A stretch of 64,000 nucleotides of DNA from Octopus vulgaris (taxonomy: Eukaryota): the NCBI GenBank assembly GCA_951406725.2, contig OX597814.1, positions 132,618,001-132,682,000 of the forward strand, written 5' to 3'. How positions within the stretch are numbered: position 1 is the first letter of the stretch; each line of letters begins with the position of its first letter. Positions 21,556 through 48,330 of the stretch are shown piece by piece. The notes beneath the pieces were generated by a model. The model saw nothing but the letters and a program-made list of their open reading frames with translations, ran no database searches and had not been told where the DNA came from. Position numbers and translations under genes: made by a program.

Positions 21556-22137
21556 ATCTTTTCTTCTCTGGGCACCAGGCCCGAAATTTTTGGAGAAGGG
21601 GCCAGTCGATTAGATCGACCCCAGTACACAACAGGTACTTAATTTATCGAACCCGAAAGGATGAAAGGCAAAGTTGACCTCGTCGGAATGGGAACTCAGA
21701 ACGTGAAGATTGACGAAATACCTATTTCTTTATTACCCACAAGGGGATAAACATAGAGGGGACAAATAAGGACAGACAAACAGATTAAGTCGATTATATC
21801 GACCCCAGTGCGTAACTGGTACTTATTTAATCGACCCCGAAAGGTTGAAAAGCAAAGTCAACCTCGGCGGAATTTGAACTCAGAACGTAGCGGCAGACGA
21901 AATACCTATTTCTTTACTACCCACAAGGGGCTAAACACACAGAGGACAAACAAGGACAGACAAACGGATTAAGTCGATTATATCGACCCCAGTGCGTAAC
22001 TGGTACTTATTAATCGACCCCGAAAGGATGGAAGGGAAAGTCGACCTCGGCGGTATTTGAACTCAAAGCGTAAAGGCAGACGAAATACCGCTAAGCATTT
22101 CGCCTGGCGTGCAGACGTTTCTGGCAGCTCGCCGCCC
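21556..22137 (-). mobile_element. tRNA-derived octopus SINE, head-to-tail trimer
   Basis: One head (A box TGCCAGAAACG, B box GAGTTCAAAT) plus three bodies with GCCTTTCATCCTTTCGGGGTCGAT...AAGTACCAG; single TSD tgttgccttgtatata at 21540-21555 and 22138-22153. Confidence 0.9.
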
Positions 22138-22641
22138 TGTTGCCTTGTATATAGTTATATATAATAAGTTAGTTTCCTTGCTTCCTAAATTTTGATTTTT
22201 TTAAATATATAACAATGTTTTCACGCTTTAGTGAATAATCATAGATGTAATATATAGGAGAATATTTCACCATGAAATAAGTAAGCAGCGTTGGTGTACG
22301 ACACGATCAATAAATAAATAAATAAATAAACAAATATATAAATAATTCATTCTACGGTTGGCAAAAGGTCTGAAATTCGTGTCGCTACACATTTGGTTCG
22401 GCCGGCTAACGATTCTGTGAGCTTGCCACCAAACAATAATGATAATACTCCTTTCTGCTTTAAGTACAAGGCCTGAAATTTGAGGGGAGGGGGATGGTCG
22501 GATGACCTTGGTGGAATTTGAACTCAGAACATAGCAGCAGACAAAATACCACTCAGTATTTTGCCCGGGCGTGCTAAAAATGCTGCCACCCTACCGCTTT
22601 AGCAGTCATAATGATGATGATGATGATGATGATAATAATAA

Positions 22642-23031
22642 TGCCGGATCATAGATAAAGCAATAGTGTTAAATGAGAAAGAAAGCAAACGATGCTGGAT
22701 CATAGATATAGCATGCCCAGCTGACAACAAGGTATGCGATAAGGAAGAAAGAAAAGTCGATAGATATGACAGGTTAGCTTGGGAGGTTACGCAGTTGTGA
22801 TCGATGAAAAAGGTGGTAGTAATACCAATAACTGTCGGAGCCCTGGGAACAGTGAGTAAAAATCTTGAGAAGTACATGGAACAAATAGGGGCTGCAATAA
22901 GGGTGGAGCACTTGCAGAAAACATCACTACTTGGAACCGCTCGAATACTCCGGATGGTACTCGAAAAATAAGGGGTGTTACCTTATTTCACTGATAGTAA
23001 ACACATCCAGCGTTAGAAGCTGTGCAAAGAC
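22642..23031 (+). mobile_element. 3' fragment of an R4/Dong-like RLE non-LTR retrotransposon
   Basis: Translates IVLNEKESKRCWIIDIACPADNKV...VIPITVGALGTV...LQKTSLLGTARILRMVLEK* (one internal stop), the restriction-like endonuclease C-terminus; flanked by (AAT)n. Confidence 0.8.
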
Positions 23032-23049
23032 AATAATAATAATAATGGG

Positions 23050-23337
23050 AAGCCCCCTTCGGTCATGAATGACCATGGGATTGCACCTAGAAGGCCAGCA
23101 GTCGCCCATGCATACCGGCCACCACTCTCTACACCACCAATGTTATCCAAGGGAAAGGCAAGGGCCGATACAGCTTGGCATCAGTGATGTCGCAACTCAT
23201 TTCTACAACTGAGTAAACTGGAGCAACGTGAAATAAAGTGTCTTGTTCAAGAACACAACACGCAGCCCGGTCCGGGAATCGAACACACAACCTAACGATC
23301 GTAAGCTCGACGCTCTAACCACTGGGCCATGCGCCTT
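23050..23337 (-). mobile_element. tRNA-derived CORE-type SINE, same family as 44427-44746
   Basis: Reverse-complement match; inserted in (AAT)n. Confidence 0.8.
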
Positions 23338-23374
23338 CACAATAATATCAATAATAATAATAATAATAATAATA

Positions 23375-24762
<1,388 letters not shown>

Positions 24763-24784
24763 TGATGATGATGATGATAATAAT

Positions 24785-24947
24785 AGGGGCTGCAATAAGG
24801 GTGGAGCTTTTGCAGAAAACAGTACTAATTGGAATCGCTCGAAGCACTTGGAAGGTGCTCGAAAAATAAGGGGTGTTACCTTAGTTCACTAGTAGTGAAC
24901 AGCTGACACCGTAGTACATCTCCAGCGTTAGAAGCTGTGCAAAGGCG

Positions 24948-25026
<79 letters not shown>

Positions 25027-25300
25027 CAATGATAATAATAATCCCAGTAATTGTAGAGGCACTGGGAGTGTTGTAATGAGGTTTGAGAGATTTGCTGGAA
25101 AAGTTGGGATTGACGTGAGGGTAGAACATGCTCAGAAAACTGTTCTTTTGGGGACAGCTAGGATCATGAGATTGGTACTTGGCTGTTAAATATCATGAAA
25201 AGATACCCTGTGAGACTTTTGGCAACACGTTGCTGTCTGCTCTTACAAAATTAATTCGAGCAAGTGAAATCGAGAGGTCTGAAAAGTGAAGTGGAAATAA
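24785..25300 (+). mobile_element. Two further 5'-truncated R4/Dong-like 3' ends (24785-24947 same family as 22642; 25040-25300 related family)
   Basis: GAAIRVELLQKTVLIGIARSTWKVLEK* and IPVIVEALG...QKTVLLGTARIMRLVLGC*; each begins inside (AAT)n. Confidence 0.7.
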
Positions 25301-25909
25301 TACTAAAATAATGGACAAACTCCCAAAACACTGCTGTAAATGCTATTCATCAAGACAGATTGAAGTAAAAGGAACAGGAAAACTATTTGAAGAAAACTGG
25401 AAAATAAAGAGACCAGTGTCTGCTCAAAGGTGTATGATACTGCAACAGTAAGTCGTAAAATGATGAAGATGCTTTTAGCATGATAGAGCTAGTGTTAGCA
25501 TGTAGAAGGTAGTCTGGTGAAATGGGAATTATTTCAGTTAAATGTAGATGCCTCTCTTTCATTAACATTCGATAAAAAAAATTTAACTAGTCCAGGGGCT
25601 AGTCCAGGGACGGTAAATTGGAATCTAAGCAGCTAAAGCTCGTCTTGTCAGTGAGTTATTAGTGGTGGCCGAAATCTCAAGCCACCCTTTTTAAGCTTTC
25701 AGCTTACTCTTTCTACTGCTAGCCCCTCCTCAGAGCAGCGGCCCTCCTCTATTTCCGGTCCCTCCATGGCAATAAGGTATGTTTCTGCATGTGCACATGT
25801 GAAGGCAGGTGTTACTGTATATGACAGGGAAGACAAAGTACCAATGGGTGGTGAGTGAACAAAGCATTGTAGAACGCGGGCGAGTGGTGAATGGATGATC
25901 CAATACGTG

Positions 25910-26140
25910 GGCGGCGAGCTGGCAGAATCGTTAGCATGCCGGGCGAAATGCTTAGTGGTATTTCGTCTGCCGCTATGTTCTGAGTTCAAATCCCGCCGAG
26001 GTCGACTTTGCCTTTCATCCTTTCGGGGTCGATTAAAAAAGTACCAGTTACGCACTGGGATCGATATAATCGACTTAATCCGTTTGTCTGTCCTTGTTCG
26101 TCCCCTCTGTGTGTAGCCCCTGGTGGGCAGTAAAGAAACA
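25910..26140 (+). mobile_element. tRNA-derived octopus SINE, full-length monomer
   Basis: GGCGGCGAGCTGGCAGAATCG...GAGTTCAAAT...GTAAAGAAACA; decayed ~21 bp TSD gaatggatgat...; central GCCTTTCATCC...GTCGAT...GTACCAG block resembles the Meta-SINE domain (from memory). Confidence 0.9.
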
Positions 26141-26207
26141 GAATGGATGATGCAGTATGTGAATATATAAGTAAAGAAGGTGGGTAGTGTAGAAAGTGCG
26201 TGTGTGG

Positions 26208-26294
<87 letters not shown>

Positions 26295-26585
26295 CTTGTG
26301 TGTTAGTGCTGTACATAATTGTATTTGTGGGAAAAGGATGAACTGCCGAATTTAGAGGGAAACAAGTGGGTTGTTAAGACCGGCTGAGAAAGTTGTATTT
26401 GCGTGAGAACAAAATATTAGTTGTAACTCTGTGGAACCTACCAGGACGTTTCTGCCTATCCAAAGGAAATTTAGCAAAGTACATCCGACTAAATTCTCTG
26501 TTTCAAATGACAAAAATCCAAGAAAGAATAAAAGAATAGATTCACAACAGAAGGTAGTATGTGTCTAAACAAAAAGTTATCTTAC

Positions 26586-26748
26586 CTTTGCTGCATCCCA
26601 TGCCATATAATAAGATCCATTCTCTAAAATTTCGAACAAACTAGCAACGAAAATGACTATCATAACTAGAGGTGCTAGATAACGCCACATAAACATCCAA
26701 AAGTAACTGGGACGTATTCCAACCATCATTTCTACGTCATCACTAAAC
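26586..26748 (-). CDS. SLC6 transporter exon (TM11): FSDDVEMMVGIRPSYFWMFMWRYLAP...YMAWDAAK
   Basis: 163 nt; acceptor ttttttcag|G, donor AAG|gtaaga; phase 2 to 0; translated by hand. Confidence 0.94.
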
Positions 26749-26964
26749 CTGAAAAAAAATTATTTTAATTATTTTCATAATTCATGGCAACCATTAACCA
26801 AATTTTACAAAGTTCATTTCATATACTTTTAAAAAATACATCCACATATACGTTCATATACCCAGACGCCCAGACACACAGACACACAGACACACACATA
26901 TATACACACATACATACCGTCAGTAGTTCATATATCCGAAAAAGAGGCACTCTAAAATATTAGA

Positions 26965-27337
26965 GCAGTGGTAAGTAGCTTGCTTACCAACCACATGGTT
27001 CCGGGTTCAGTCCCACTGCCTGGCACCTTGGGCAAGTGTCTTCTACTATAGCCTCAAGGCCGACCAAAGCCTTATGAGTGGATTTGGTAGACGGAAACTC
27101 AAAGAAACCCGTCGTATATATGTATGTATATGTTTATGTGCTTGTGTTTGTCCCCCTAGCATTGCTTGACAACCGATGCTGGTGTGTTTACGTCCCCGTA
27201 ACTTAGCGGTTCGGCAAATGAGACCGATAGAATAAGTACTGGGCTTACAAAAAATAAGTTCCGGGGTCGATTTGCTCGACTAAAGGTGGTGCTCCAGCAT
27301 GGCCACAGTCAAATGACTGAAACAAGTAAAAGAGTAA
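26965..27337 (+). mobile_element. Third SINE family with an internal microsatellite (other copies: 55438-55950 +, 35830-36170 -, 40585-41070 -, partial 50485-50556 +)
   Basis: gtggtaag...gggttcagtccc...cttgggcaagtgtcttctactatagcc...ccgtcgtata[microsat]...cagtcaaatgactgaaacaagtaaaaga. Confidence 0.8.
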
Positions 27338-27386
<49 letters not shown>

Positions 27387-27510
27387 GGATACATATATAG
27401 GGATACACATACATTTTTGGATATGTATATGAAATTTTGCATGAATGTATATATAATGGACATAAGATATTTTCAAAGATGTTCCTGGATTTTAAAGGAG
27501 TCATACTTAC

Positions 27511-27670
27511 TGTTTCAGTCCGTATATGTATGAAACTGCGATTACTTCAAGGAAGGCAATGACTAGAAGAGGGATATTTGCACAATACATGTCGAACAGG
27601 TCAAAAACATATGGACCAGTTGACGTTGCAAAGCAAAATGATATTAACATTGACACGAAACATACAACGC
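27511..27670 (-). CDS. SLC6 transporter exon (TM9-TM10): (G)VVCFVSMLISFCFATSTGPYVFDLFDMY...EVIAVSYIYGLK(Q)
   Basis: 160 nt; acceptor tttttcag|GC, donor CA|gtaagt; phase 1 to 2; translated by hand. Confidence 0.94.
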
Positions 27671-29395
27671 CTGAAAAAGAAAAGAAAATTTTAGATAAAG
27701 TAAAACATGAAAACGAATCAAAACACTACAAATAGGACAAAGTAGGTTGAGCACGGTATTAGTTTAATGCTCAAGACGGGTACTTAAATGAGGATATATT
27801 CCTCGACGTTATGTTTAAAAAGATAAGAAAATGCAAGGAAAGATATTGGGAGAGGAAAGAGCGAGTTAGAGAACAGCTGTATGAATGTGAAAGAAAGTAG
27901 ATTAATTTATCAAATGAGATTTGAAAATATATATATATATATGAAAGAAGAAAGCAGGGGCAACCAGAAGGCTTAAGAGACAGTGGGGAATGCTGTTCTA
28001 TGAGGAGGGATCTAGAAGGTATAAAGATGCAGATGCATAGGTGCTTTTGTGTGTGTGATACATTATAAATGAAAAGCTCCTAATTCGAGTATTCTGAGTT
28101 AAGCCTTTCCAATCTTTCATTTAATACTCAGAGCCTGCTTATTATTTTGTGAAATATTTGCTGTTTGAATATATTTCTGAAACATCATGCAAAAGTGATG
28201 AAGAAACACTTGCTTTAATGCTCTTGTTTTACAAAACCGATACTGCCTTGAATAAAAATTCTTAATTTTTCACTGAAACAAAGGTCACGCCGCATTTTTT
28301 AATTTAAAGCCGCTATTTCTGTATGATTGTGCCCTATCAAATAAATAATTTTGAGTCCATGAAGATTTCTCTCACACAAGCGCCACAAAAATTTCAACAA
28401 AGGCGTAATGCATCTCCTGTCAGAGCTGACAAATGAATTTTTGCGCTTATGAAATTTCCTGAAATTGCCATATTTTAGGATAATCTCTGCTGTTTGTTTT
28501 AACTATGGCACTGTATATTATCGTCATTGCCTGGCAGTTACCATCTGGTGGGTAGTTCTCTTAAATTCTGAGTTGCAAGATCTTTAATGGCCAGCTGCTT
28601 CCATTGCTTTCCCATTCAGCTTTGTAGTATTATAACTTCTGATATAACAATTAAAATTCGTAAAACTGAACTACTAACCTTAACACAGTTAATATTTAAT
28701 ATCTTACTATACTTATGCCTCGGCGGAAAATGGCGATTTATTAAACGAAGGAATTCCCTAAATCACCTCTTAATTCTAGGTTCATTACGGTTACATTAAA
28801 TGTCATAAAAATTTTATCTTTCCAATTTCTGTTTCAACATTTGTCGTTCCCAGTGTTTTTTTTAAGGCTTGGAACCTTATCGAATACCTCATCATTTCAA
28901 AGAATCTCGTTATGCTACCCAGCTGCTCTCATGAAAGCTTCTTCATTGGAAGATAATGAAGATATTCGATGTATTTAAAGCAGTAATGGTTTTCTGATTA
29001 ACATAACGTAATATTCCTAATGATTTGAACAAAAGCTGTTTAAAATTAATTTGGCTTAAATCAGTTTGATTTAATTATGTATCACAGTTATGTAGTTAAA
29101 CATTTGATGATGAGGTGTATCGTAATTAAATAACCTAGGAACACAAAGTGTGTAGTATATGGGAAATTTATGATTTTTCTGCTTTTATGCTAAGTATGTT
29201 ACTCTTAAAATCGTTTTGTTCGTTTATGTAAATACTTGTACGTCGGTCCTAATTAGATCTACTGCAATGTAATAACTTGTCGGGGTTTAATGACCATTTA
29301 TTAATTGCGTTCTTAATGATAAACTCTTTGATATTCATACATCATTTCTTTATATGTGTGTCTTTGTTTATGTGTGTTTGTATGTACATGCGTGG

Positions 29396-29433
<38 letters not shown>

Positions 29434-31319
29434 TAATTGTATTGTGGAACAGCCATTTTATCCATCTAATTATTACGTAAACCATTCAGCTCAATTTTCA
29501 TTTTATTACTTGATGTTTTAAGCATTTCGTTGCATCATACTTACACAATTCCACTTCAACAATTTTAAATTTTGTTGGTCCCATGCTCATATGGGTCTCA
29601 TGTCTAACTTTGCTGTTGAACTCAGGAATATAAGTCTGTTGAATCATCTTTATCAACGTTAACTACTCGAAATCGGTTGTCGTTAGTTTCTTCTGAGCCC
29701 CGTCTCTTGTTTGTGTAAAGGAGGTGAATGGACGTGCAAGATGAGTTTCAGTTGACTCAGTGTGAATTTAGGCAGGCCAGAAGGATAGAAGCTATTGTAG
29801 TAGCGACAAAATACATAAAGCTGACAGTGCGTTGGTGACTGAACCAATCAATTGCACAGTTTTCTTTTTTGATTTAAGATGTGATTTAAGATGTTAGAGT
29901 GTGTAACCGCAATATGATAAAAAACAAAAAAAAATCTTCATCCATTTCTGAGAGTATATAGTCTACCATAGATAGCTGTCTACATATATGAACGGAGGTA
30001 TCTAATCATTCACACTACAATCTTTTCTCCGAAACTGAAGCACTAGAAACCCCAGGAGCTAAGTTGTGAGAGTTAATAGAAACAATCCATTGAAACATAT
30101 TCAGTAAAGAGACACTAAAAATGTTTAAATGTCAGCCCAATCTTCCACCAGTTACATTCTTTGATAAAGAAATAGAATACGAACTGGATAGTGAAGTCCA
30201 AGGTCTCTGTGCTTGAGATACAATCAAGTTGGCTATGACTGTAATCCTTTTATCAACTATCTAAATTCCTGCCATCAGATGGCACGCTTACTCCCTGGGA
30301 AAAATTGTACATATGAGTCAGTAACTTCAATGAATCATCTGGTGTGATTCATTAATATACGAAAACAATTACACAGCAAATCTCATCTCATACGAATAAG
30401 TGCACGCACTGGCTCTATAAAAGATGCATTTTGGTACACACACACACGCATACACACACGCGCGCGTACACACACACACACTAATGTTTGTTTTTATGTT
30501 CAGTTATGACAAAAATAATTTTACATTAATCAGAGGGCTTACTCTATACTTTTGTTGAGTAAAAATGTATAATTCTTATACGAGAAAGGCGGTGCTCTAG
30601 TATGGCCACAGTCAAATGACTGAAACAAATAAAAGAAAAAAAAAAATAAATAAAAGAATGTTTTGGATAGAGACTTCGAATTTTCGGCCAACTAAGTCAC
30701 CTTCGGAATGAATACAGTTAGTCTTGCTTTATATAGTCTCTGATCAATTAAAAATCATCTTTAGGCGTCTGGGTTTGAGTGGAGTGGTAAGTTTTTGTGG
30801 TCGGTTGTTATGGAAAGGTGTTCTGGGAAAAAAACTTTTATTGATTAAATTGGGGGTGGGTGTTATGTTATTGTTCAGAATTTATCCATGCGTGTAGAAC
30901 TTTGTAAACAAACATGCACGTGTTTATCTCTTGTCAGGTAGGCACAAGATGTGATAGTAGTTTCGTTGCTTTTGAATTTAATCCATCCTTTTGATTAGAC
31001 TATATATATATATGCTAGCTGATGTACCTGGCAATTCCATGAATTTTGGAGAGTATATCAGCCGAAACGTTGTGTTAACAACAAACAAAATGAGGACAAA
31101 TATCGGTCAAATGTAAATAATATATGTATGTATGAATCTATATGTGTATGTATATATCGTTATATGCAAGAGAAGCAAGTTTTAACTTAAAATGTATTCT
31201 CTCTCACTCGTGTGTGTGTGTATTCATGTGTATACTTGTATGTACCTTCTATGTATGTATGTATGTATGTATGTATGTATGTATGTATGTATGTATGTAT
31301 GTATGTATGTATGTATCTA

Positions 31320-31467
<148 letters not shown>

Positions 31468-31507
31468 CCAGCATGGCCACAGCTCATGAGCTGAAACTAG
31501 AATCAAT

Positions 31508-31551
<44 letters not shown>

Positions 31552-32565
31552 GTATATACGTAGGTATACATGTATGCCTAGAATGCAATTAAAATCAATT
31601 TGAAAAATATATTTGAAAACAACAATTCTAAAATGACTGAAAATATCTCTCTTCTGATTCTGATCGCTTACGTTATTGGAATAAATCCTTTTAAAACTAT
31701 AAATACTTGTTCTCCGATTCAGAACAACTTATCAATGGGAAATGTGTTGGAAATCATTCTGTCTTAATCCACAAATACACTCTAGAGAAAGATCTATTTA
31801 CAGTTCTTTGTCATTGATGTCATGATCTCATTAATTATGATTGGAAAACACAGGTATAATAGATAGGAAATTTGTTGGGAATTATTTTCATTCAAAATCA
31901 AATGTATACAGGAAGAAAATGTTGAAATGATTTGTTGTAAACATTCTATGAATTGAAGTAAAAAAATGGGTAGTTGATATGAAATTTGGAACAAAATATC
32001 ATTATTTATGTGTAAATTTTAATTTTATTTTAATCAAGATATTATTATTTTAATATTTACTGGTATTCTCTGGACAGCACCTATTACCATTTTCAAGAGA
32101 ATTGACCACTGAAAATAACATTTGTACGAAAATACTCACCTTACGTGACTTCAACAAACCTAAACTTAGACGCTTCCTCAATTTACACACGCAAGGAAAT
32201 TAGAGCACTTTAGTACCTTGGTCTTAGAGACAGCAGTTATATTGCTTCAATGAAGGTTGAAGGCCTCAAAGATCTCTAGCGGTTATGTTTCTCACTTGGA
32301 TGGTGTTGATTGTTGTTTAATCCCAGATCAACCTTGATTAAACTGACTTGATAATTAAAGTTGTCATGAACGAGAGCAAGCCCTCTTTTTATTTCTAGGA
32401 ATACATTTTTGAGACAGTAAAGCGTAATTTCCTAGAGATTTGGCTGCTTTTGTTATACGTTTAAAAAAAAAAGTGTCAAAATTTGTTGAAAGTAAGAAAA
32501 CTGTGTGGAAGTGTTTGTTAGGTGGGTTTAAATAACGAATGAGAGATATGATAAAGATACGAGTT

Positions 32566-32766
32566 TACGAAGGGGTGCTGAAAAGTTCCTGGCTTTGGGT
32601 AAAAGAAAATCAGTTAAATATGATTTCATTCAACAGATTCCACTCTCAGATTCACAGCGGTCCCTCAGTTTGTCTAAATCCTGTAAAAAAAAATCGGAGG
32701 TTTGGACCACCAATCAGGCTTTTGGCGATGTTCTTAAAACCAAGAGCTTTTCAATAGCCCCTCATA
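32566..32766. mobile_element. Mariner-like MITE
   Basis: Imperfect TIRs tacgaaggggtgctgaaaagttcctgg / ccaagagcttttcaatagcccctcata. Confidence 0.6.
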
Positions 32767-33359
32767 TATGACATGTCAGTCTTAATACAAAAATATGTAA
32801 TGTATTAAAAATTATAATATATATCGGCAAACAGAAAGTGAGTGGCATATTTAGATACTTAGATTAAAGATTGACTGTCGTTCACGTGTCTTTTAGTAAG
32901 AGGAATTCAGCAGCATCTTTGAAATATTAGAAGGGTGATATTCCTTAACATAAATAGTTAATACAGCTATATTAGCTATTATTTCATAGCTGAGTACAGT
33001 GTTATATTATTGCTAAAACCGCACCCTGTAAGAATAATGGTAAACCACAACTTGCATACGGAAGAAACCACCCTACAAGAAAGCATAACTTGTTACAGAA
33101 TACAAAAATATATATTATCTGTATTTATATATGACTTAAATCCCCGGCACTGCACTGTATCCTTAAGCAAGACTACTTTACTTCACGTTCTCACAGTCCA
33201 CTCAGCGGGTAAAAATGAGTAGTATTCGTATTTCAAATATGTATATGTATATGCGTAAACATACATACTTTATGACAAAATATTCAACAAGAACAGAGCG
33301 CACAAGGCTGAACACTGATCTGCTGATTTGATTCTTCTCTCAAGAATATAATGACTTAC

Positions 33360-33561: not shown

Positions 33562-33624
33562 CTGAAATATCAAGCATAAAGAAATAATTAGTTTAATATA
33601 TAAAGTTATTCCAAACATGAAAAC

Positions 33625-33815: not shown

Positions 33816-33825
33816 TATATGTTAA

Positions 33826-34056
33826 GGCGGCGAGCTGGCAGAAACGTTAGCACGCCGGGCGAAATGTGTAGCCGTATTTCGCCTGCCGCTACGTTTTGGG
33901 TTCAAATTCCGCCGAGGTCGACTTTGCCTTTCATCCTTTCGGGGTCGATAAATTAAGTACCAGTTACGCACTGGGGTCGATATAATCGACTTAATCCGTT
34001 TGTCTGTCCTTGTTTGTCCCCTCTGTGTTTAGCCCCTTGTGGGTAGTAAAGATATA
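33826..34056 (+). mobile_element. tRNA-derived octopus SINE, full-length monomer
   Basis: Near-identical to 25910-26140. Confidence 0.9.
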
Positions 34057-34421
34057 AATATATGCGTGTGTAATTATATGTTGTTCATGCTGATGTTGTT
34101 TAGCTAAATGACAAATTGTTTGAAGGAGACACGTGATCTAAGTTTAGAAAACTTAGTTCACGTGTCTCCTAATAATCATTTCGTCTGCTTTCTTTATTAG
34201 AAACTATTTATGATGGTCCCTATTACATATTAATGTAGGTGCATTACATACCTAATTAGAAATACTTATGCAGCTAGGAAAAGGTGAGTAGTTCAGCGAT
34301 TGATTTTATTTCAAATATCTAGGCATTTATGAGTAACAAACTAAAAAACGAAGGCTGCGCAACATTATTTATGGAAGGTTTAGCTACATGCTATTTATAA
34401 CAGATTGAGTGAATATACACT

Positions 34422-34836
34422 TATTTCTTTACTACCCACAAGGGGCTAAACTCAGAGAGGACAAACAAGGACAGACAAACGGATTAAGTCGTTTATATCG
34501 ACCCAAGTGCGTAACTGGTACTTAATTTATCGACCCCGAAAGGATGAAAGGCAAAGTCTACCTCGGCGGAATTTGAACTCAGAACGTAGCGGCAGACGAA
34601 ATACCTATTTCTTTACTACCCACAAAGGGCTAAACACAGAGAAGACAAACAAGGATAGACAGACAGATTAAGTCGATTATATCGACCCCAGTGCGTAACT
34701 GGTACTTATTTAATCGAACCCGAAAGGATGAAAGGCAAAGTCGACCTCGGCGGAATTTGAAGTCAGAACGTAGCAGCAGACGAGCTACCACCAAGCATTT
34801 CGTCCGGCGTGCTAACGCTTCTGCCAGCTCACCGAC
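34422..34836 (-). mobile_element. tRNA-derived octopus SINE, dimer
   Basis: Two bodies and one head; TSD ttgagtgaatata at 34405-34417 and 34839-34851. Confidence 0.9.
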
Positions 34837-35164
34837 TTTTGAGTGAATATATACAGGCTCACTCGATGAATTGAGTATTTGAATGTAAATATACAACCTT
34901 AAATACACATATTGATAGAAATGAATTCATAAGGTTTATAAAGGAGAATGAAACTTTCATATGTATTTAAAATATATCTCCCTTAATCTTGGTTGACTAA
35001 ATGAGCCGGAGTGTACCTCAAATTAGTCAACCTCAGCCTTCATGATTACATCTTTTCAACATTCAGGTGACGAGAGTAATGTAATCGCTTATATATAACA
35101 CATATATTTGTATAGCATTTTTGCCAAAATGGGAAGCTATTACTAGGAAATAGTAGTAGTAGTT

Positions 35165-35226
<62 letters not shown>

Positions 35227-36452: not shown

Positions 36453-36921
36453 CTAAAAGACACGTATTGGAATACATCATTTTCTGCAGTTAAACAAAAT
36501 TTTATGTGCCAAAAGCAGTTTCCAAAGAATACTGTTCTACGACAAACAAACATTGAGGATGCTTAAATTTATCGATTTCATACAACTTTTATGATATCAA
36601 AGAAATTCAATTACGTCTTCGATTCCACATATCTGTATCTGTATGTATGTATGTATGTATGTATGTATGTATGTATGTATGTATGTATGTATGTATGTAT
36701 GTATGTATGTATGTATGCATGTGTGTCATTATTCAGTTAATTTCAAGATTTCTTGCTAATAGAGAAAGAACCAGTTTCTAACCTAGATCCAAGGTTTCTT
36801 CATTGCAATTTCAACATCAATAACAGGCCATTTTATGTATGTATGTATGTATGCATGTATGTATGTATGTATGTATGTATGTATGTATGTATGTATGTAT
36901 GTATGTATGTATGTATGTATG

Positions 36922-37474
36922 TCAGGTCACTTTCGAGTACTACTGGTAACATGTAACCCAGTACAACCTGTTGCATGGTCGGGTCATCGGCGACTAAACC
37001 GGCAAACCCACCAAGCTTGCTTGGTGAAGAGGGTGTTTATTGGACACCCTGCGGGATGAAAAACAAAACCTGTCAAAGATCGGAAGAACTCTTGAGAGTC
37101 AACGGCCATCCAATAAATGTCTTAAGGCTGTATCATGCGCGGGAACATAGAAATAATCGGACTGAATACCCGATCGCGCGGTTAAACCATTGGGAGTGAA
37201 GGACTCCTAGCCTTTGTTAGAGCATCCTTCTAGGAGAAGGTTACTCAGGTAACTGGGATAACTCCGACATAAAACCTGCGGCTCAGTGGTTACCGATGAT
37301 GTTGACTTGTTCTTCTTTTCGGATCATGGCTGCTGTTGCTTAGAGAGTGGGATTGACTCAGTGCACAGCCTTTCCTCACTTTAAAAAAAATTTTCTTGCA
37401 CAGGCATTACACGATAACAACATTGATTAAGCTTCGTGCAATGGCCATACTCGATAACGAGGGGGCAGCCACCA
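36922..37474 (+). mobile_element. Unclassified ~550 bp non-autonomous retroelement, possibly RTE-derived
   Basis: GC-richer block cleanly embedded in (TATG)n; ggagaagg...actccgacataaaacc resembles RTE 5' UTR motifs (from memory). Confidence 0.45.
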
Positions 37475-37648
37475 TGTATGTATGTATGTATGTATGTATG
37501 TATGTATGTATGTATGTATGTATGTATGTATGTATGTATGTATGTATGTATGTATGTGTGTATGTATGTATGTATGTATGTATGTATGTATGTATGTATG
37601 TATGTATGTATGTATGTATGTATGTTTGTATGTATGTATGTATGCATG

Positions 37649-37680
<32 letters not shown>

Positions 37681-37760
37681 TGTATGTATGTATGTATGTA
37701 TGTATGTACGTATGTATGCATGTATATATGTATGTATGTATGAACGTGTGTATGTATGTG
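37475..37760. repeat. (TATG)n microsatellite
   Basis: Direct inspection. Confidence 0.95.
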
Positions 37761-38559
37761 CCGATTTGTATATTTTATGTATGTATTCTCAAGCATATTG
37801 TTACATATCTAGACATGTTCATATATATTTAAATGATAAACTTCTCGAAAGTTTTACAGATTTTACAGTTACAGTGATGGATCTGTAGTCTTCGAATTAG
37901 CTTTCTCCTGTCTGGTTTTGAGAAGCCTAATTTCTCAAGATTGGTATTTAGGCAGTGTGTTACACATCCCAGGGTCTAATCTGGATAGAGTAACTACAGA
38001 TTTCTCAATTGTTCAACATATGTGTTCTCTTTTTCACTGATCTTCAGCCTTATGTTAACACCGCTGGGCAGCTAATTGCCACAACTATGCACACAGTTTC
38101 TCTTCTCTTACCCAAATCATTATATCATTTTATTGAGGTCTTCACTGGTACATCCCACCAGTATTCCTTTCTATTATGAGTGGCTATGGCGTCTACCATG
38201 TTGTGGGGTTTTATTTCTTTGTCCTTGGGATTATCCCTCCGAAGTATTTCATTATAGAGTGTCCTAGCAACAACGTCATGTCTCATCGGTAGATAATACC
38301 GTGATGACAACCACTTATAATGTGGGTGATATCTTCAGTGTGAACTCCATAAAGTCTGCATCGGTTGTCACATTTTACTGCTTTTCCTGCATTTCTAACC
38401 CTTTTGTGCATCAGGTACTTGGTTGATATTTTCTGATCCTGGATTGCAAATGCATACGCTTCAAAGTGGGAGGTAGTAATCAGGCTGTTCGTCCATGATA
38501 AACTGCTTTGATGATCGATGTTACTATCATCACAAAGCTTTCTACTAACATATGTATGT

Positions 38560-39010
38560 ATGCATGTTATTGTTCAGTTTTATCTAAATATTTCCTGCCA
38601 ACAGAGAGAGAGAGAGCCGGTTTCTAACCTAGATCCAATGCTCCTTCATTGGAATTTCAACATCAACAGCAGGTTATTTTTGTATGTATGTATGTATGTA
38701 TGTATGTATGTATGCATGTATGTATGTATTTATGTATGTATATGTGCAGATTTGTATGTTTTGTTTTATGTATTTATTGTCATGCATAAACTTGCTCATA
38801 TATATTTAAATAATAAACTTCTGGGAAGTTTTACAGATTTTTACAGTTCCAGTGATGGATTGAATCTGTAGTCTTCAAATTAGCTTTCTCCTTTCTGGTT
38901 TTGAGAAGCCTAATTTCTCAAGATTGGTACTGAGGCAATGTGTTACGTGTCCCAGGGCCCCAATAATTACAGGTATAAATATGAACTTGCAATTTGGATA
39001 GTGTATTCAG
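38560..39010 (-). mobile_element. Second 3' fragment of the same R4/Dong-like family (third copy at 54030-54400)
   Basis: IPVIIGALGHVTHCLSTNLEKLGFSK and shared 3' UTR gagccggtttctaacctagatcc. Confidence 0.75.
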
Positions 39011-40081
39011 ATTTATGTATGTATGTATGTATGTTTGTATGTGTGTGTATATAGGAACGGAGTAGGTAAGGTCTGGGCTACATATGTAACCTTTAATTTA
39101 ACCAAGATGTCCTTGGCCTGCAGAGTAGCCGGCGGTATACACCTCGCTTGTATATTCACCACTTCTGAGGTTCCGCCCGCTCTGGAGCATATGTAGCCCG
39201 GATCTTTTCTACTCCATTCCGTAACTCTTGTATTCCTATTCGCACACCCGGCAACCCTAGTCGCTTACCGTGGAATATAAAAAGAACTTTGTTTCAGCTA
39301 TTTCGTTCTTCGATACGTAAAAATCCACAATCCTCCGTCTCAATAAACCACTATTGTCTATGAAAGTTGTTTTTTTTTAATATTTATTATGGATTCCTTG
39401 AAGATAACTTTCTTCCTACATGTCGACCTCTGGATTTTATATATATGTATATATAATAATAAATATTAGGGAATAAATCCAAACTTACAGGGAAAAATCA
39501 GATTTAGGATTGAATCCAATTTTATAGTAAAATATTATATTATAATAAATTAGCGACAAAACCACTATTATGCAAATCAAACAATGAAAGACTTAAGCCA
39601 ATACATAAATTAATTTATATTATTTTATGTATATATATACATGTATTATATGTATATATATGTATTATATGTATATATATATATATATATAAATATTGTT
39701 AGAGATAGAAACATAGTGATATATAGGGAGTAGTCATATTTATAAATGTGGGGAAAGTAGACCTGACGATTAGGAGTGCTTAAACGTAATGAGTTTTGGA
39801 ATGAGATTTTGTATCTTAACAATACCATACGTACCCTCATGAAGCACGTGTAGTCCGTAATATGAACATTTCGGGATTATTAATATAAATAGTAAGTATA
39901 TTATTTAACATTTTAAGGCTTGGTTGAGTTAATATCGTTTGGAGTCGATGAAGGTGTGGGTATTTCTATCCCTAACAATATTTTGATACATATAAATTGA
40001 TTATTGAGAGTGATTCAATTTAATATTTTTAATTTGAATGTCTCAATCCTGTGGCACTGGAATTGATATTCCCTAATTATT

Positions 40082-40153
<72 letters not shown>

Positions 40154-40257
40154 CAGCAAAACAATTAAGATTCAAATGAATTCAAGTGAATATGGTACTT
40201 AACTTAGATGCGCCAGAATTCTTTATGGTATTAACCATAAAATTATGTGGGGTGATT

Positions 40258-40491
40258 ATAATCAAGAAAAAAGCAACAAGAATGGCTTGGTAGTTTAGTA
40301 CAATTGGAACTCACTCCTATAACTTCATACGGATATTTACACTCTCTAAGATGTTTGGAAAACCTATATGTGATTTAGCTGATGAATACTTGACATTATA
40401 TTTGCTGTAATATTTGCAGCTTGAAATAAAATGTTTATAGTATGAAACAATTGTACTAAACTACCAATCCATTCTTGTTGCTTTTTTCTTG

Positions 40492-40497
<6 letters not shown>
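40258..40497. repeat. Inverted-repeat element next to (TA)n
   Basis: ~50 bp arms ataatcaagaaaaaagcaacaagaatgg.ttggtagtttagtacaattg and its reverse complement. Confidence 0.75.
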
Positions 40498-40532
<35 letters not shown>

Positions 40533-40798
40533 CAAATACCCTCATACCTTCACAACCCTCCCCCCCCCGAAAACACACCACATATCTTTTACTTGTTTCA
40601 GTCATTAGACTGTGGTCGTAAGGGGGCACCGACTTGAAGGGTTTTAGTCAAATGAATCGAGCCCAATACGTGTTTTTAAACCTAGCACTTTTTCGATCGG
40701 TCATTTTAGCAGAACTACTAAGTTACAAGGACTTAAACTAGCACCGGTTGTGAAACTTTGATGGAAGAAAAACAAACACACACACACACACACACACA

Positions 40799-40886
<88 letters not shown>

Positions 40887-42444
40887 CACATATACATATA
40901 TATTTGTGTACACATACGACGAGTTTCTTTCAGTTTCTGCCTACCAAATATACTCCCAAAGCTTTGGTCGGCTGTAGTTGAAGACACATGCCCAAGGTGA
41001 CACGTAGCGTGACTGAACAAGGAACCACTTGGCTGGGAAGCAGTCTTCCTACCACATAGCCATGCCTGCTGTATACAGATGTGTGTGTATGTGTGTGTGT
41101 GTGTATGCGTATGTGTGTATGTGCGTGTGAGTGATTACGCATCCATGTGACTGCGTGTGCTCGTCTATGTTTTTATATATAAATTTTCTGTTATCTTTAA
41201 TTCAAGAGAGAAAGTCATACTTATGGCCATTTTAAATTCCTTTGGAAATTCATGGCTGTGAGGGAGGAAGGTATTCTCAACCCTACTTAAAAAACCCACA
41301 GTGGAATAAAATTGGGCGAGATATTCAGGTTAGCACGCAAGTAAGCCACAGCGGAATTTGAGGCAGAATGAAAGAACGGCAACAAATTCTGTAAAGCATC
41401 CGTTGTGGCGCTCTGAGAAATACGATAACCAATCGGCTTGAATTTGAACACTTCCATTATGTAAATTTGCAAACACACATGTAAACAGCCAAGGTATCTG
41501 TTTAAACGTTATTTACAAATGGCATTCTGTTTAAACAAAAACTCCATCGAAACTTCATTTTAGTAAATTATCTGAAACAATTCTAAAGAATTCTCATTCC
41601 TGCGTTACCAAACCGGGAAGAATATTTTGTTTGTACAAATATTGTCTTGTTGCTGTACGTTATTGCTGTGTAAATATCTTTCATTTCATGGATAAAATTT
41701 ATCTAAAATGTTTTCATTCATGAGATAAGGATTTTCCCCCATGAAAAACAAATGTGGTTATTTAGTTCCTGATAATTCCCATCCATACTTTATGTAATTT
41801 TGTAATCCTTTTTCATTATATATATATAAATACAGTACAATTCACTTTAAAGAGGCTTTACACTCAAAAGGCTATACTTTCCGATAAAGATCTTGGTAAT
41901 AAAATCGTTGTTAGTAGTATTTATGGCAGTAATGAAGATGAGAGTATTGATAATGGCGGTAGTTGTGGTGCTAAAATTGATGGTTTTGAAATGAGTACGC
42001 ATTGCAGATGTGAAAACATTAACTTATTCTAGATATCAAAATCTGAAGAACATCGCGTTGTCCACACCATTCGCTTCTCTGTTTCCATCAAGTAGTCCTG
42101 TGATCAATGACGTTCCAGTTGGGTGTTTCACTTTTTACTAGATGTACGACGTATCGGTCGCTCTCTGACAGGTTTATGGTCGAGCCTGGGTTAGTGGAGA
42201 CTGCAGTTCTTGGCCAGTCTCCCAGACCATATCTCTGTTTACCATTATCGGGGCGGAGATGGCTATCCGCAAGTGTGAGACCCGAGAGTCTCACACTTGG
42301 TGATGGTGGTAGTGGTGTAGGTGGTGGTTGTGGTGGTTTTGGTGGTATTGGGCTTGGTGAATGTAGTAGAAGGGATTGGGGCAATGATAGTTTTAACGAT
42401 GATAGCATTGACGGTAGCAAATGTGATAAGTATACTGAACTTAC

Positions 42445-42646
42445 CGAGAACTGAGAAAACCACTGTGGCAGTCAATAAGGAAGTGAAGAAGTCGCCGATA
42501 CTGACCATAAGAGCTTCACTAAGAAAGTTACTGCGGACTGGATTATATGAAGCCAAAGCTACCAAGCATCCGAATGCTAAGCCAAATGAATAGAATATTT
42601 GAGTTGCTGCATCTAACCAAACAGCAGGTTCGAATAACTTGTCCCA
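42445..42646 (-). CDS. SLC6 transporter exon (TM6-TM7): WDKLFEPAVWLDAATQIFYSFGLAFG...GDFFTSLLTATVVFSVL(G)
   Basis: 202 nt; acceptor ttttacag|TGG, donor G|gtaagt; phase 0 to 1. Confidence 0.95.
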
Positions 42647-42654
42647 CTGTAAAA

Positions 42655-42714
<60 letters not shown>

Positions 42715-44426
42715 GTAATAATGATTTGTTTTATTTGTCACCAGAACGATGGCTGAGTGGGCAATATAAAGACAGACATGAAGAGTGAGGCTTTGCATAT
42801 AATGAAATGATAAAGAAAAAAATGAGGATAATGATGATTTTGAGACATATTCTTACATAATTTTTCTATTGAAAAACATTTATATAAAATAACTGTTGTA
42901 AAATTTTTAAAGATTTGATTACTTTATGTGTGCCTTATTTGAAAATATGCAAATTAGAAAACTTTGAAAATGTAATGAAATTACACTTTTTGAGGCACGC
43001 TGAAGCTGAGCAAACATTTCCCAACGCTGCTGAATAGAAATTAGACGTTAAACTATGGTTTCAAGTTTCGACACAAGGCTAGCAACTTTTGTGAGAGAAC
43101 GTAAGTTGATTACATCGAGTCCAGTAATAGACTGGTACTTATCGACTTTGAAAGGGTGAAAACAAAGTCGACTTTAGCAAAATTTTAATTCAAAATGTAA
43201 CGAATCGGAATTTGGACATTATATAATGCGAAACTTAATTAAAATGTCGCGTAGAATAGTCTGATCTTAGCAACATCAAAAACCATCGTACGATTTGCCT
43301 GCATTTCTTCCACAAAAAAACTGTTTACGCCGATTCCTCACGCAAGTACAAATTAGAGTGGCACTGATGCGTCCATTTGCTATATAGGCACTGTCAGAAA
43401 GTGAAGCCTTCTGAAATTAAGCAAATGAGTTATGAGACTCGCAAACAAACACACTATTCAACAGCAAGCCCATTTCTATTTGACGAGAATCCATTGCGCA
43501 ATCTCTCTTTTCTGCTTAACCCGTTACCAAAAACATTAAGTACCGTTGCTTTTGCTTTATTTATGTACTGGTTTGATATTTTGCTTTACTGATTAGTCTG
43601 ATACATTAAAAACTACTGGAGCTATGACTTTTACATTATTATTGAAAGTTTATTGAGCAAAACACATTTTGTTTCATATTTAAAAGTATTATTAGTTATT
43701 TTCAACAATTTAACAATTTATTTCTCTATTAAATAAACTATTCAACTCTGTTTAATGAAATAGAAATACATTAAAACATATCAACACCATTTTTATTTCA
43801 TATTTTTACGACAGTAAGAGATAATGATATAAATATATTCTTTTTAAATTGCTTAAATATGTAAAAAAAACAACATATGTGCTTTGTTTTCATTCGTATG
43901 ATTTTTAGTTAATGTTGGATGAAATCGTTCAATCGCATAACGTAATGCGTGTGGGCACACTTCGAAAGAAGGTCGAACTTGTAAATAGCATATTCCTTGC
44001 AATTGATAATTATTTAAAATTCCTTGGATGACTTAACGGAATTAGTGTTTTGGTGTTAATATGTTACTTCTTAGTTTCATAATTTTTATCGGATTCTCAC
44101 ACAACTGCCAATGTGTTGAAGGAATGATTAGAAAAGTTTTAAACAAACCCAAAGAGATATGAATAAGTTTGAGGACAATATTGCTGCTGGTATTTAGACG
44201 TGCAGATTACATTTATACTTTATGATTTGTTTAATAAATATTGTTCCTTTTCGTTTACAGACATATTTATTTTTGTCTTAGAAATACCAACCACTTACTT
44301 TGAGTAATGTTTTAATGCACCAAAAAAGGCATTAAGATCGCCATCTTATTTAAAATGGTATTGCAGGAAATATAAGTTCAGTGGGTCTAATAAGTAGTAT
44401 TAAGATATCATTAGAAATTTCATGAA

Positions 44427-44746
44427 GGCGCATGGATCAGTGGTTAGAGTGTCGAGCTTATGATCGTGAGGTTGTGAGCTCGAATCCCGGACCGGGCTGT
44501 ATGTTGTGTTCTCGAGCAAGACACTTTATTTCACGTTGCTCTAATTCACTCAGCTGTAGAAATGAGTTGCGACGTCATAGGTGACAAGCTGTATCGGTCT
44601 TTGCCTTTCCCTTGGATAACATTTGTGGCGTGGAGACGGGAGGCCGGTATGCACGGGCAACTGCTGGTCTTCCATAAACAACCTTGGCCGAACTTGTGCC
44701 TGGGATAGTAGCTTTCTAGGTCTGTGTCGTGACCGAAGGGGGTCTC
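44427..44746 (+). mobile_element. tRNA-derived CORE-type SINE (octopus OR-like)
   Basis: tRNA head GGCGCATGGATCAGTGGTTAGAGTG...CTCGAATCCCG, CORE-like ctcgagcaagacactttatttcac; TSD agaaatttcat. Confidence 0.8.
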
Positions 44747-45298
44747 AGAAATTTCATATAAAAAAAATTGATTAGCAGTAAATTGGTTAAGTGAGACTTC
44801 GTAGCGTTAAAATATCTACGAGCTTTGTTCTACAATTATATTCAAGAAAGTATTTAGAGATATCAATATGAAATGTAAAATAAAATCATGGAAGCCATAG
44901 TGAAATAGTTTTCTCAGTGAATAGCCCTAAAATAATAGCATTCAGATATCTCGGTCTTTCTATTAATGTACTACTTTTTTAGTCAGCAGTTTGTTTTAAA
45001 TGCGAAGTTGTTATGAGAGCAACTTTCTGGGGTAATCAAACGGCACGCAATGTCGCTTAACCAAATTAGAGCCCATCATATTTCTTTCATTCTTTTTGTT
45101 TAATCATGGTGTATCAAGTGTCTAAAATGATTATATATTTGACATTGTTCACAACATAAAAAAAGATTCTTGAATAGAATAATTGATGATAGAATGATTG
45201 TGTTGTAAGCTAAGATTCCCAACTGCCTATAATAGTAATTACAGTTCAGTGTATATACTATACATAACTTCTTTGATACATACTTCCATAGAAATACA

Positions 45299-45707
45299 TA
45301 TTTCTTTACTACCCACAAGGGGCTAAACACAGGGGAGACAAACAAGGATAGACAGACGGATTAAGTCGATAATATCAACCGCAGTGCGTAACTGGTACTT
45401 AGTTTATCGACTCCGAAAGGATGAAAAGCAAAGTCGACCTCGGCGGAATTTGAACTCAGAACGTAACAGCAGGCGAAATACCTATTTCCTTACTACCCAC
45501 ATGGGGTTTCACAGAGAGGACAAACAAGGACAAAGAGATTAGGTCGATTACATCAACCCCAGTGCGTAACTGGTACTTAATTTGTCGACCTTGAAAGGAT
45601 GAAAGGCAAAGCCGACCTCGGTGGAATTTGAACTCAGAACGTAACGGCAGACGAAATACGGCTACGCATTTCGCCCGGCGTGCTAACGTTTCTGCCAGCT
45701 CGCTGCC
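45299..45707 (-). mobile_element. tRNA-derived octopus SINE, dimer
   Basis: Two bodies and one head; TSD tacttccatagaaata at 45281-45296 and 45709-45724. Confidence 0.9.
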
Positions 45708-46115
45708 TTACTTCCATAGAAATATACTTAAAACAAAAGATGTCGTGCGAACGTGTGATAGGAGGTCAACTAATTTTAATATAAATGTATGGCAGTAGCG
45801 TATTACGTATTATATTTATACGTCAATGTATATATCGTTATGAGCACATAAGCTCTTTGCGATTTTAAATACATCGTTAATTTAGCTCAGAACATTATCA
45901 GAACAAATGCATTTCGAACATGACTATCATCCTTTTCTACATATCTACAAATACATTGTTTAATTGTATTTAAATTTTTATTCAAATTAAGGTAAGTTGT
46001 GATTTGAAACAGATTTTGGTTATTTCAAGCAGTTAAGCGATCGCGTTGGTTCGTAGACATGTTATTCTAAATTTATGCAGGGTTATGTGTAAAAAATTAA
46101 CAATTAGAATTTTAC

Positions 46116-46226
46116 CTTTGGAATGAATAAGTATTTTACACCTTCCTCAAATCCATGTAGAGTTACTCCGCGAAAGAAAAAAATGACCAGGACAAAATAT
46201 GGGAAAGTTGCTGTAACATAGACAAC
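46116..46226 (-). CDS. SLC6 transporter exon (TM5): [37 protein letters not shown]
   Basis: 111 nt; acceptor ttccag|GTT, donor AAG|gtaaaa; absent from the ORF track, translated by hand. Confidence 0.95.
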
Positions 46227-47544
46227 CTGGAATTAAGCGAGAAAATAGAATCATTTAGTATCTTACGTGTAAAATTTCAACAAGTTGTTTCAACGAGTAC
46301 AAATAATTACGATGTCACCAATTGAAATAACTCTGTAGAATCACCTTATTAAACATACTTTATCACGCGCGCGCGTGCGACATAAGGTCACGTTTTATCG
46401 TGATAATTAAGACTTTCATCTTCCGTATCAAAATCAATTCCAATTTCTTTTCATAGCAACTACTAGTACACACAGACACACCCACACATGCAAGCTATTG
46501 CGTGTATCATGTGAGCTATTGCTAAAACGCCCCATTTAATATTCTAATAGTGTTCTCTCAAAGCGAGATATGCATTTGGTTATTGGAAACCAACCAGAGC
46601 AACGATCTTGGGTAAGTTGTGGATATCGTTACAACTTGCACATGATAGTAACAGGAAAATTGAAATTTCGTAAAATTTCAAACAAATTCCCAAACTTAGA
46701 TGCTAAACTTTCATATAATGGGGAATATTTCAATTGTAAATGTTCGGAATAAATCAATCATTGAAACTATTTGACAAATCATTTTTCTGCTGCATTAAAT
46801 AAAAAGAAAATTAATACGCAGTGCTAATTGCTTTTATCTTTAGCAAAGGTTACTTTCGTAATCATATAGATGGGCTTTCCTAATTGAATCAAATCCACAC
46901 AGAAAGAAATGAAAGAGCAAGTCAATCTTATATGGAACTTATCCTAATAATTCATTATAGTCAGTCCATTTTTATACAATTACGATGACCACACTCTCGT
47001 CTCTGAAATCTCTAACTGGAGAGGATTTGAGCTACTTCACAAAAATAAATGAATGAATAATATGTTTAAGAAATTCATATATACATTAGTACATATAAAA
47101 CATTCAGTATATAAAAGGATTTGGGAAAGGAAAATATTCACAAGTTATATTTTTAATAAAGCGATTTTCCTACAAACGAATTATATTGTCCAAGCTAGAA
47201 ATGTAAATGTTTTTTAATGCGGCAATTTAAAACAGAATTTCCATAGTAATAGACACCTTATGAAGACTAGAAAGAGAGCCAATTAGCGCTATTTCAAAAA
47301 AATACCAAAACATACAGCATGCAGAAAATACCATTAGAAAACAGGGCACACATTAGGACGTACCCAAAGTTCACAGAGCTTTACCCGATTTTGCTGACAT
47401 AACTAAGAATACTGAAATCGTGTTAGTGATAATGTGTTTGTTTGCCACATTAACAACGTAGGAAAAGATAATTCCAATAACAAAGTAGAGAATAAATTTG
47501 AATTTACGCAGAAGCGGTTATAAAAATTAGAAAACAAAAGTAGT

Positions 47545-48330
47545 AATCTTTCTAACTATAGGCACAAGGCCAGAAATTTTGTGGGGAGATAGCTAGTCGA
47601 TTACATCAACTCCAGTTTTTGAGTGGTACTTTATTTTATCAATTCAGAAATGATGAAAGACAAAGTCGACCTTGACGGAATTTGAACGCAGACAATAACG
47701 GAAGAGGTGCCGCTAAACATTTTATCCGTCGTGCTAACGATTCTGCCAGCTCATCGTCTTGAAAAACAAAAGCAATGAACCTTTCTACTAGAAGCACAAG
47801 GCCTGAAATTTTGGAGAAGGGGATAGTCGATTACATAGACCATAGTACACAACTGGTACTTATTTCTTCGACCCCGAAAAGATGAAAGGCAAAGACGAAC
47901 TCGGCGGAATTTGAACTCAGGACGTAACGGCAGACGAAGGGGCTAAACACAGAGAGGACAAACAAGGACAGAAAAACGGATTAAGTCGATTATATCGACC
48001 CCAGTGTGTAACTGGTACTTATTTAATCGACGCCGAAAGGATGAAAGGCAAAGAGGACCTCGGCGGAATTTTGAATTCCGAACGTAGCGGCAGGCGAAAT
48101 ACTATTTCTTTACTAACCACAAGGGGCTAAACACAGAGGGGACAAACAAGACAGACAAACGGATTAAGTCGATTACATCAACCCCAGTGCGTAACTGGTA
48201 CTTAATTTATCGACCCCGAAAGGATGAAAGACAAAGTCGACCTCCGCGGAATTTGAACTCAGAACGTAATGGCAGGCGAAATACCGCTAAGCATTTTGCC
48301 CGGCCTGCTAACGATTCTCAGAGCTCGACG
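47545..48330 (-). mobile_element. SINE cluster: older monomer (47545-47760) plus trimer (47780-48330)
   Basis: Same family; junctions at 47938 and 48101. Confidence 0.85.

Follow-up and report, generated by a model that had tools for sequence, protein, structure and literature searches.

Stacking of an octopus SINE at a single base of its own head, probably with the enzymes of a Tx1-like LINE

Why should the units of a tandem array of short interspersed elements (SINE) be joined, time after time, at one and the same nucleotide? The question is raised by a 64,000-nucleotide stretch of the Octopus vulgaris genome (contig OX597814.1, positions 132,618,001–132,682,000 of assembly GCA_951406725.2; hereafter the window), in which a preliminary reading based on the letters alone had described four head-to-tail SINE arrays and two ways of making them, the favoured one being rolling-circle copying of circular SINE RNA and the other the site-specific insertion of a young subfamily into older copies. 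The four arrays do exist, all on the window's minus strand, and the second option is the one that is supported, both by the ages of the target site duplications (TSDs) and by a long interspersed element (LINE) found at the same base. Very probably, one SINE family has been stacked between positions 47 and 48 of its head through repeated target-primed insertion of young subfamily members into resident copies, with a Tx1-like LINE supplying the enzymes. A tail and a single site are common to SINE and LINE; the last unit of many arrays is old, as is the outer TSD, and the first unit is young; and a minority of loci are plain nested insertions with a TSD.

We distinguish young, LINE-like tails (Ty1 and Ty2, unrelated to yeast Ty) from older ones (Toa, Tob and Toc). 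Array 1 (21556..22137) is a trimer consisting of a young head with its hairpin (22082..22137, the target site being intact at 22082–22090), two young-tailed bodies and a last body with a Toa tail, which is likely the resident copy. Young tails meet SINE position 48 at 21899..21912 and, in the older last unit, at 21715..21728, both junctions reading GAAATA-CC-TATTTC and spaced by 184 bp, the unit length proposed earlier. No private mutations are common to its units, and the array is flanked by an exact 16-bp TSD (5′ copy 22138..22153, 3′ copy 21540..21555). Arrays 2 (34421..34838) and 3 (45297..45708) are dimers in which both tails are young; their junctions (34598–34611 and 45475–45488, respectively) have the same sequence, and their 16-bp outer TSDs (34405–34420/34839–34854 and 45281–45296/45709–45724) contain one mismatch and none. 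Array 4 (47775..48331), again a trimer with an old tail on its last unit, has one junction that is a G short (GAAATA-C-TATTTC, 48096–48108), a second affected by a deletion (~47933–47944) and only a degenerate candidate for an outer TSD, with ~13/17 positions matching by eye. Thus, the six junctions, the single outer TSD of arrays 1–3 and the older tail on the 3′-most unit of both trimers are all as the sequence-only reading had described them.

The SINE is 231 nt long and, in the young monomer that serves as reference (33826..34056, plus strand), is divided into a head (1–47), a body (48–168) and a LINE-like tail (to 231). Its TSDs are ~11–22 bp in length, and many start with GGT; a second young monomer (25909..26141, plus strand) has a 21-bp TSD with three mismatches. 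A B-box-like GTTCAAA occupies SINE positions 75–81 and visual inspection showed an A-box-like stretch; in the window, ARAGORN predicted no tRNA, and a search of 21400–26300 against Rfam gave no tRNA match. This family is probably the same as, or related to, the octopus tRNA-derived SINEs of Ohshima and Okada (1994).

The end of the element and the hairpin at the junction both differ somewhat from what was first thought. GAAATA had been taken as the SINE 3′ end, but 27 of 59 terminal Ty1 tails run on into AGGTA or longer, and in four TSD pairs (L008, L105, L108 and L021) the 3′ copy reads an element-derived GGTAT where the 5′ copy differs. Because terminal tails extend in this way and 3′ TSD copies carry GGTAT, the template RNA likely ended in GGUAU, which is identical, rather than complementary, to the target site. 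The palindrome formed by GAAATA and TATTTC is real, but their complementarity looks incidental, given that related LINE-like tails ending in AATAAAGAAAT lie at unrelated sites. Similarly, there is a hairpin, but with 13 pairs and a 4-nt loop instead of the 12 bp and 6 nt proposed. Head positions 43 and 48 covary (TG in 60, GC in 30 and TA in 19 of 119 young heads, e.g., at 45660–45665 of the window) such that the hairpin pair is kept, which puts the junction at the loop's 3′ edge. In its GC form the head keeps the hairpin but has a changed target site, and could be an escape allele. Nicking directed by a cruciform is not favoured, the hairpin being weak as DNA (−5.6 kcal/mol), and the RNA fold of a whole array is no better than that of shuffled sequences (z −0.36; monomer, z −1.20).

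Exact patterns were searched across the 2.80-Gb genome (227 contigs), yielding 34,752 matches to a 20-mer spanning the junction and none to its reversed control. Among 73,523 exact young-tail 20-mers, 23,842 (at least 32%) read exactly on into GGTATTTCG. We agree with the initial assessment that random 5′ truncation cannot give such arrays. For closer analysis, we assembled a 912-kb sample from 60 ten-kb junction-centred tiles, 20 tiles at fixed positions, 16 short loci and the window; it is enriched for arrays and junctions by design, and proportions drawn from it are to be read accordingly. Its 414 body hits include the position-48 junction after 133 of 210 Ty1 tails, none of 30 Ty2, none of 66 Toa, one of 29 Tob and none of 33 Toc tails. 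When the 78 headed arrays are sorted by last tail, 27 end in Toa, 20 in Ty1, 12 in Ty2, five in Tob and three in Toc, with 11 unclassified. Across the fixed tiles (200 kb) and the window, 10 of 28 Ty1 tails occupy the site, which makes up only 24 of the 431 GGTAT words there. Other preferences are apparent as well. Ty2 tails join head position 15 in 1,224 exact 31-mers genome-wide (e.g., loci L116–L135), possibly reflecting a second LINE subfamily or site; Toa tails often continue into head positions 13–19; and the young SINEs of L094, L096, L099 and L013 sit at GGTAC/GGCAT of another dispersed tandem repeat.

Sequence other than SINE, but with the SINE tail and at the SINE site, was first encountered at two loci. 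A 476-nt query devoid of SINE body gave 870 candidates, 40 of which were scored and the best 30 fetched, the query locus included. Two of these best 30 loci have no 3′ end; the other 28 all end at SINE position 48, in a GAAAT-TGGTATT-like sequence (22 flagged automatically, and six, with deletions or short matches, by eye). The LINE thus uses the same base, between positions 47 and 48, as the SINE junctions, and the SINEs downstream of it belong to several subfamilies and tail types. When 20 loci were extended in search of 5′ ends, four full-length copies (~5.2 kb) were found to be directly preceded by GGTATTTCGTC(T/C)G, which duplicates 13 nt of the site; 5′-truncated copies mostly have no head upstream, for which later rearrangement or deletion of the target are the explanations that we can offer. 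The LINE tail is identical to the last ~45 nt of the SINE in 40 of 48 alignment columns, and a small stem-loop is common to both. A pattern search with this tail gave 28 matches, including seven to this LINE, 15 to SINEs and six to other elements; the seven are all at the site and, coming from among the earlier 30 loci, are not independent.

The predicted coding capacity, read from broken frames of several copies, comprises an APE endonuclease, an L1-like reverse transcriptase (RT) and a C-terminal CCHC-type zinc motif, with domain matches to RVT_1 (E=2e-20) and, both just under the Pfam cut-off, to Exo_endo_phos (E=4e-5) and zf-RVT (E=1.5e-5). The best matches of the RT in the Protein Data Bank (PDB) are to L1 ORF2, a named homologue is a 'transposon TX1' protein (36% identity), and a top named homologue comes from Argonauta. 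From the TX1 homologue, the domains and the target specificity, rather than from a tree, the element appears to be Tx1-like. Several further elements were seen in passing. Other LINE-like 3′ ends carry the same tail (L399 and L408, also L405, L415, L402 and L423), and the first two have one different downstream sequence in common, which suggests another site-specific family. Related RT/zf-RVT elements at L024:231–1598, L059, L066 and L072 end in (TATC)n or (ATC)n microsatellites, and at L381 the last 78 nt of the SINE are present in five tandem copies directly upstream of a full-length LINE.

Which unit arrived first can be judged from the relative ages of the units and of the outer TSD. Matched pattern searches returned 253 Toc-ended arrays, 215 Toc monomers, 1,580 Toa-ended arrays and 557 Toa monomers, from which 70, 50, 30 and 29, respectively, were taken, the last after removal of one near-duplicate locus; TSDs were required to score at least 9, and low-complexity ones were excluded. 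Outer TSDs of seamless Toc-ended arrays mismatch at 55 of 389 positions (14.1%; TSD recovered in 21/55), as do those of Toc monomers (36/257, 14.0%; 14/47 recovered). The corresponding values are 5.8% for Toa-ended arrays (10/172; 10/21 recovered), 6.6% for Toa monomers (14/212; 13/28) and 7.8% for all young classes pooled (75/963), the Toc-ended value being higher (p=5e-4). Divergence amounts to 3.2% in first units, 10.2% (Toc) and 6.2% (Toa) in last units, and 10.6% and 5.7% in the respective monomers. The tail loop is intact in 35 of 70 last units of Toc arrays versus 32 of 50 monomers, that is, equally decayed, whereas B-box decay (intact in 49/70 versus 31/50) did not separate the models. 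With last unit and outer TSD equally old and the first unit young, the old-ended arrays support an order of events in which the resident SINE preceded the insertion.

The units of these arrays also differ in origin. First units of Toa-ended arrays are of the Ty1 type (48C in 11/27 versus 0/18 Toa monomers, p=0.0014; TT at positions 61/63 in 2/27 versus 12/18), last units are of the Toa type from position 61 onward, and the alleles of first and last units assort without linkage. In dimers, the sharing of private mutations is at the background level (10/364 versus 50/2699 across loci), and last units are all distinct, the smallest pairwise distance among 30 being 0.12. Unlinked alleles, background sharing and distinct last units together exclude one circular template or few masters as the source of old-ended arrays.

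Most arrays have a single head and lack an inner TSD. A resident head or junction is kept upstream in five of 60 headed Toc arrays and six of 27 Toa arrays, and we estimate that the old head and its TSD are retained in about 10–20% of old-ended arrays. The pattern expected of nested insertions, the site followed by 2–20 nt and a full head, has 159 exact matches genome-wide. Inspection of 30 loci, less two duplicates, revealed an upstream head in 15 and a junction in 13; the inserted copy rejoins position 48 in 21 of the 28, and private variants are common to both TSD/site copies in four. In Toc arrays, head divergence amounts to 13.4% (positions 6–17), 8.8% (18–29), 12.3% (30–38) and 5.0% (56–70), compared to 16.0, 15.5, 26.9 and 14.8% in Toc monomers and 8.1, 5.0, 6.9 and 8.0% in young monomers. 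First-unit divergence in seamless Toc arrays hence drops from resident-like at 6–17 to young at 56–70, and the resident head was likely overwritten for the most part, through annealing of the cDNA, thereby hiding the inner TSD. The alternative of a hidden TSD, with the resident head kept and ~15 nt duplicated, is rejected for most arrays, as differences of the last unit recur in the first at only five of 102 sites (positions 56–66); L028 and L066 may be exceptions.

The following sequence of events would account for these observations. The site would be nicked on its bottom strand by the LINE endonuclease, GGUAU at the end of the RNA would pair with the primer, and the 3′ end of the cDNA, being homologous to the resident head, would anneal to it and replace most of it, leaving a single head without an inner TSD. 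With the new head, the site is restored and insertion is repeatable.

Several observations weigh against this reconstruction. Eighteen of the 28 Ty1 SINEs in the fixed tiles and the window lie outside the site, whereas the LINE is nearly always in it, and LINEs other than the Tx1-like one may serve as carriers of the SINE. The LINE tail is closer to that of Ty2 SINEs, which joins position 15, not 48. Young-ended arrays (32 of the 78 headed ones, and window arrays 2 and 3) have no age gap between first and last unit (divergence 4.5 versus 4.6% and 5.1 versus 5.4%), so that a template jump or the copying of a multimer would there look the same as insertion. The TSD comparison draws on only 21/55 Toc arrays and 14/47 Toc monomers, with a score cut that favours intact duplications; within the Toc set, TSD mismatch is uncorrelated with last-unit divergence (rho −0.13, p=0.59), and the Toa comparison cannot separate the age of the resident from that of the insertion. 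Finally, at several nested loci, the putative TSD copies differ beyond the common 11-mer.

The rival that fares best, although we consider it unlikely, is a template jump during a single insertion, whereby the RT, having begun on one SINE RNA, stalls at the head hairpin and switches via GGUAU onto a young RNA at its 3′ end, so that both units enter together. The 5-nt identity at the junction, the independent assortment of units, first units that are of the young type from the head on (the 48C contrast given above) and the lack of an age gap in young-ended arrays are all as such a jump would have it. However, it predicts a young outer TSD, and old-ended arrays have old ones; the tail loops of their last units are as decayed as those of monomers, and genuine duplications accompany full-length LINEs and nested SINEs at the site. 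That the arrays descend from multimeric master genes, one or a few in number, with the single ancestral dimer considered in the sequence-only reading among them, is very improbable. In its favour, the end of the RNA probably extends into the following unit, and at L022 a second unit is cut at ~position 76 with the TSD right after it, suggesting that some arrays may be re-copied whole. Last units, however, form a star-like pattern with five types of tail, and alleles of first and last units are not linked, which largely refutes masters for old-ended arrays.

The remaining two explanations hinge in part on the longer arrays. Where an array comprises at least three units, mutations are shared in a polar manner, with the following unit at the 5′ end and the preceding one further 3′. 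Between penultimate and last units, 7/10 variants are shared at the 5′ end compared to 0/11 in the last tail bin; between second and first units, the values are 0/8 for the 5′ end and 11/18 for the first tail bin (seven from one locus). Approximately 12 of 28 such arrays, including array 1 of the window, share nothing and fit successive insertions. From the polarity of the sharing, we infer that many of the others were lengthened by unequal exchange between neighbouring units after the insertions. Satellite-like expansion is seen in a ten-junction array of ~185-bp units (C1:4676266–4677963, G000) and in eight copies of a 64-bp unit of head plus site (C10:17996023–17996504), and near 4800–5250 of L024 two arrays are joined in opposite orientation inside truncated bodies, an inversion-type product. 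Older SINE subfamilies, too, lie head to tail in the window, at (ATT)n/(ATC)n tails (860–1450, 16840–17300 and 47561–47752).

Rolling-circle reverse transcription of a loop-cleaved circular SINE RNA, akin to retrozymes or tricRNAs, was the favoured option at the outset and now has hardly any claim to credence. A fixed junction at the edge of a hairpin loop, the 184-bp period, the existence of long arrays (ten successive junctions near C1:4.68 Mb) and diagnostic alleles common to neighbouring young units in longer arrays are what it would produce. Yet just 20 of the 78 headed arrays terminate with that same young tail, five subfamilies are represented among last units, the units of dimers assort independently (allele concordance in young–young dimers is not significant, n=27, p 0.09–1, at low power), sharing in longer arrays is polar, the outer TSD matches the last unit in age and not the first, and a 5-kb LINE uses the same base. 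No ribozyme family, hammerhead included, was detected at E<=5 in 21400–26300, which holds array 1; with the junction present in more than 34,000 genomic copies, junction reads alone would not show circularity. Equally hard to credit is DNA-level tandem duplication by unequal exchange as the sole maker of arrays, which the polar sharing would fit but which cannot create the first junction and leaves dimers with background sharing (10/364 versus 50/2699) and units of different subfamilies, making it a secondary process.

Repeated insertion into resident copies may, tentatively, be extended to a self-feeding loop, a conjecture that we think somewhat less likely to be right than wrong. The SINE would have taken the tail of a LINE that targets the SINE head; its RNA would end in the target, homology to the resident would complete integration and overwrite the head, and tens of thousands of decayed copies would gain a fresh putative promoter half and a new target. 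On the main explanation, a passenger element supplies the landing site for its carrier LINE and for itself at tens of thousands of loci, and the homology-driven, TSD-free 5′ junction of engineered R2 would here be the natural default. Stacking would account for a large class of octopus tandem repeats, with arrays that are composites of different ages, such that repeat dating and consensus building will mix subfamilies. The predicted APE endonuclease, with its defined short target, could be of use in studies of specificity.

A literature search outside Repbase reports and subscription journals returned no account of these octopus arrays and no SINE targeted by its own partner LINE; the passages concerned of one report (PMC12988792) do not mention Tx1 or nesting. 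The closest published case is that of crocodilian SINEU and Tx1-Mar (Kojima, 2015; PMC4494074). SINEU has the target preference of the Tx1-Mar LINE, the target being a Mariner DNA transposon; tandem SINEU-3 copies are ascribed there to sequential insertion, and the specificity of the SINEs ranges from 13% to 90%. As in octopus, a SINE and a Tx1 LINE have one target, which is itself a repeat. The crocodilian target, however, is Mariner, and a TSD is sandwiched between tandem copies, whereas the octopus SINE uses its own head, its tail is clearly homologous to that of the LINE and the resident head is mostly overwritten, leaving one head and n bodies. More broadly, the target-specific Tx1 families summarised in the same source include Tx1 in Tx1D, Keno in U2, and Kibi and Koshi in microsatellites (PMC4494074), likewise APE-type LINEs that sit at one fixed position of a multicopy sequence and are flanked by a short TSD; the target of the octopus LINE differs in being a tRNA-like SINE head that is likely multiplied by the LINE itself. 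Squamate SINE-derived satellites (PMC10702118) are also tandem repeats of SINE parts, and the long octopus arrays also grow by DNA duplication; the octopus unit boundary, by contrast, is one insertion-site base, and most arrays are dimers. For the 5′ junction, the nearest parallel comes from R2, for which experiments are reported to give 5′ junctions that are seamless and lack a duplication if the template is homologous to the sequence upstream (PMC11331408). In these 'anneal' junctions, the 3′ end of the cDNA pairs with the homologous upstream target; R2 acts with a restriction-like nuclease, in rDNA and on engineered templates, whereas in octopus the same step would be taken by the passenger of an APE LINE at many thousands of dispersed loci.

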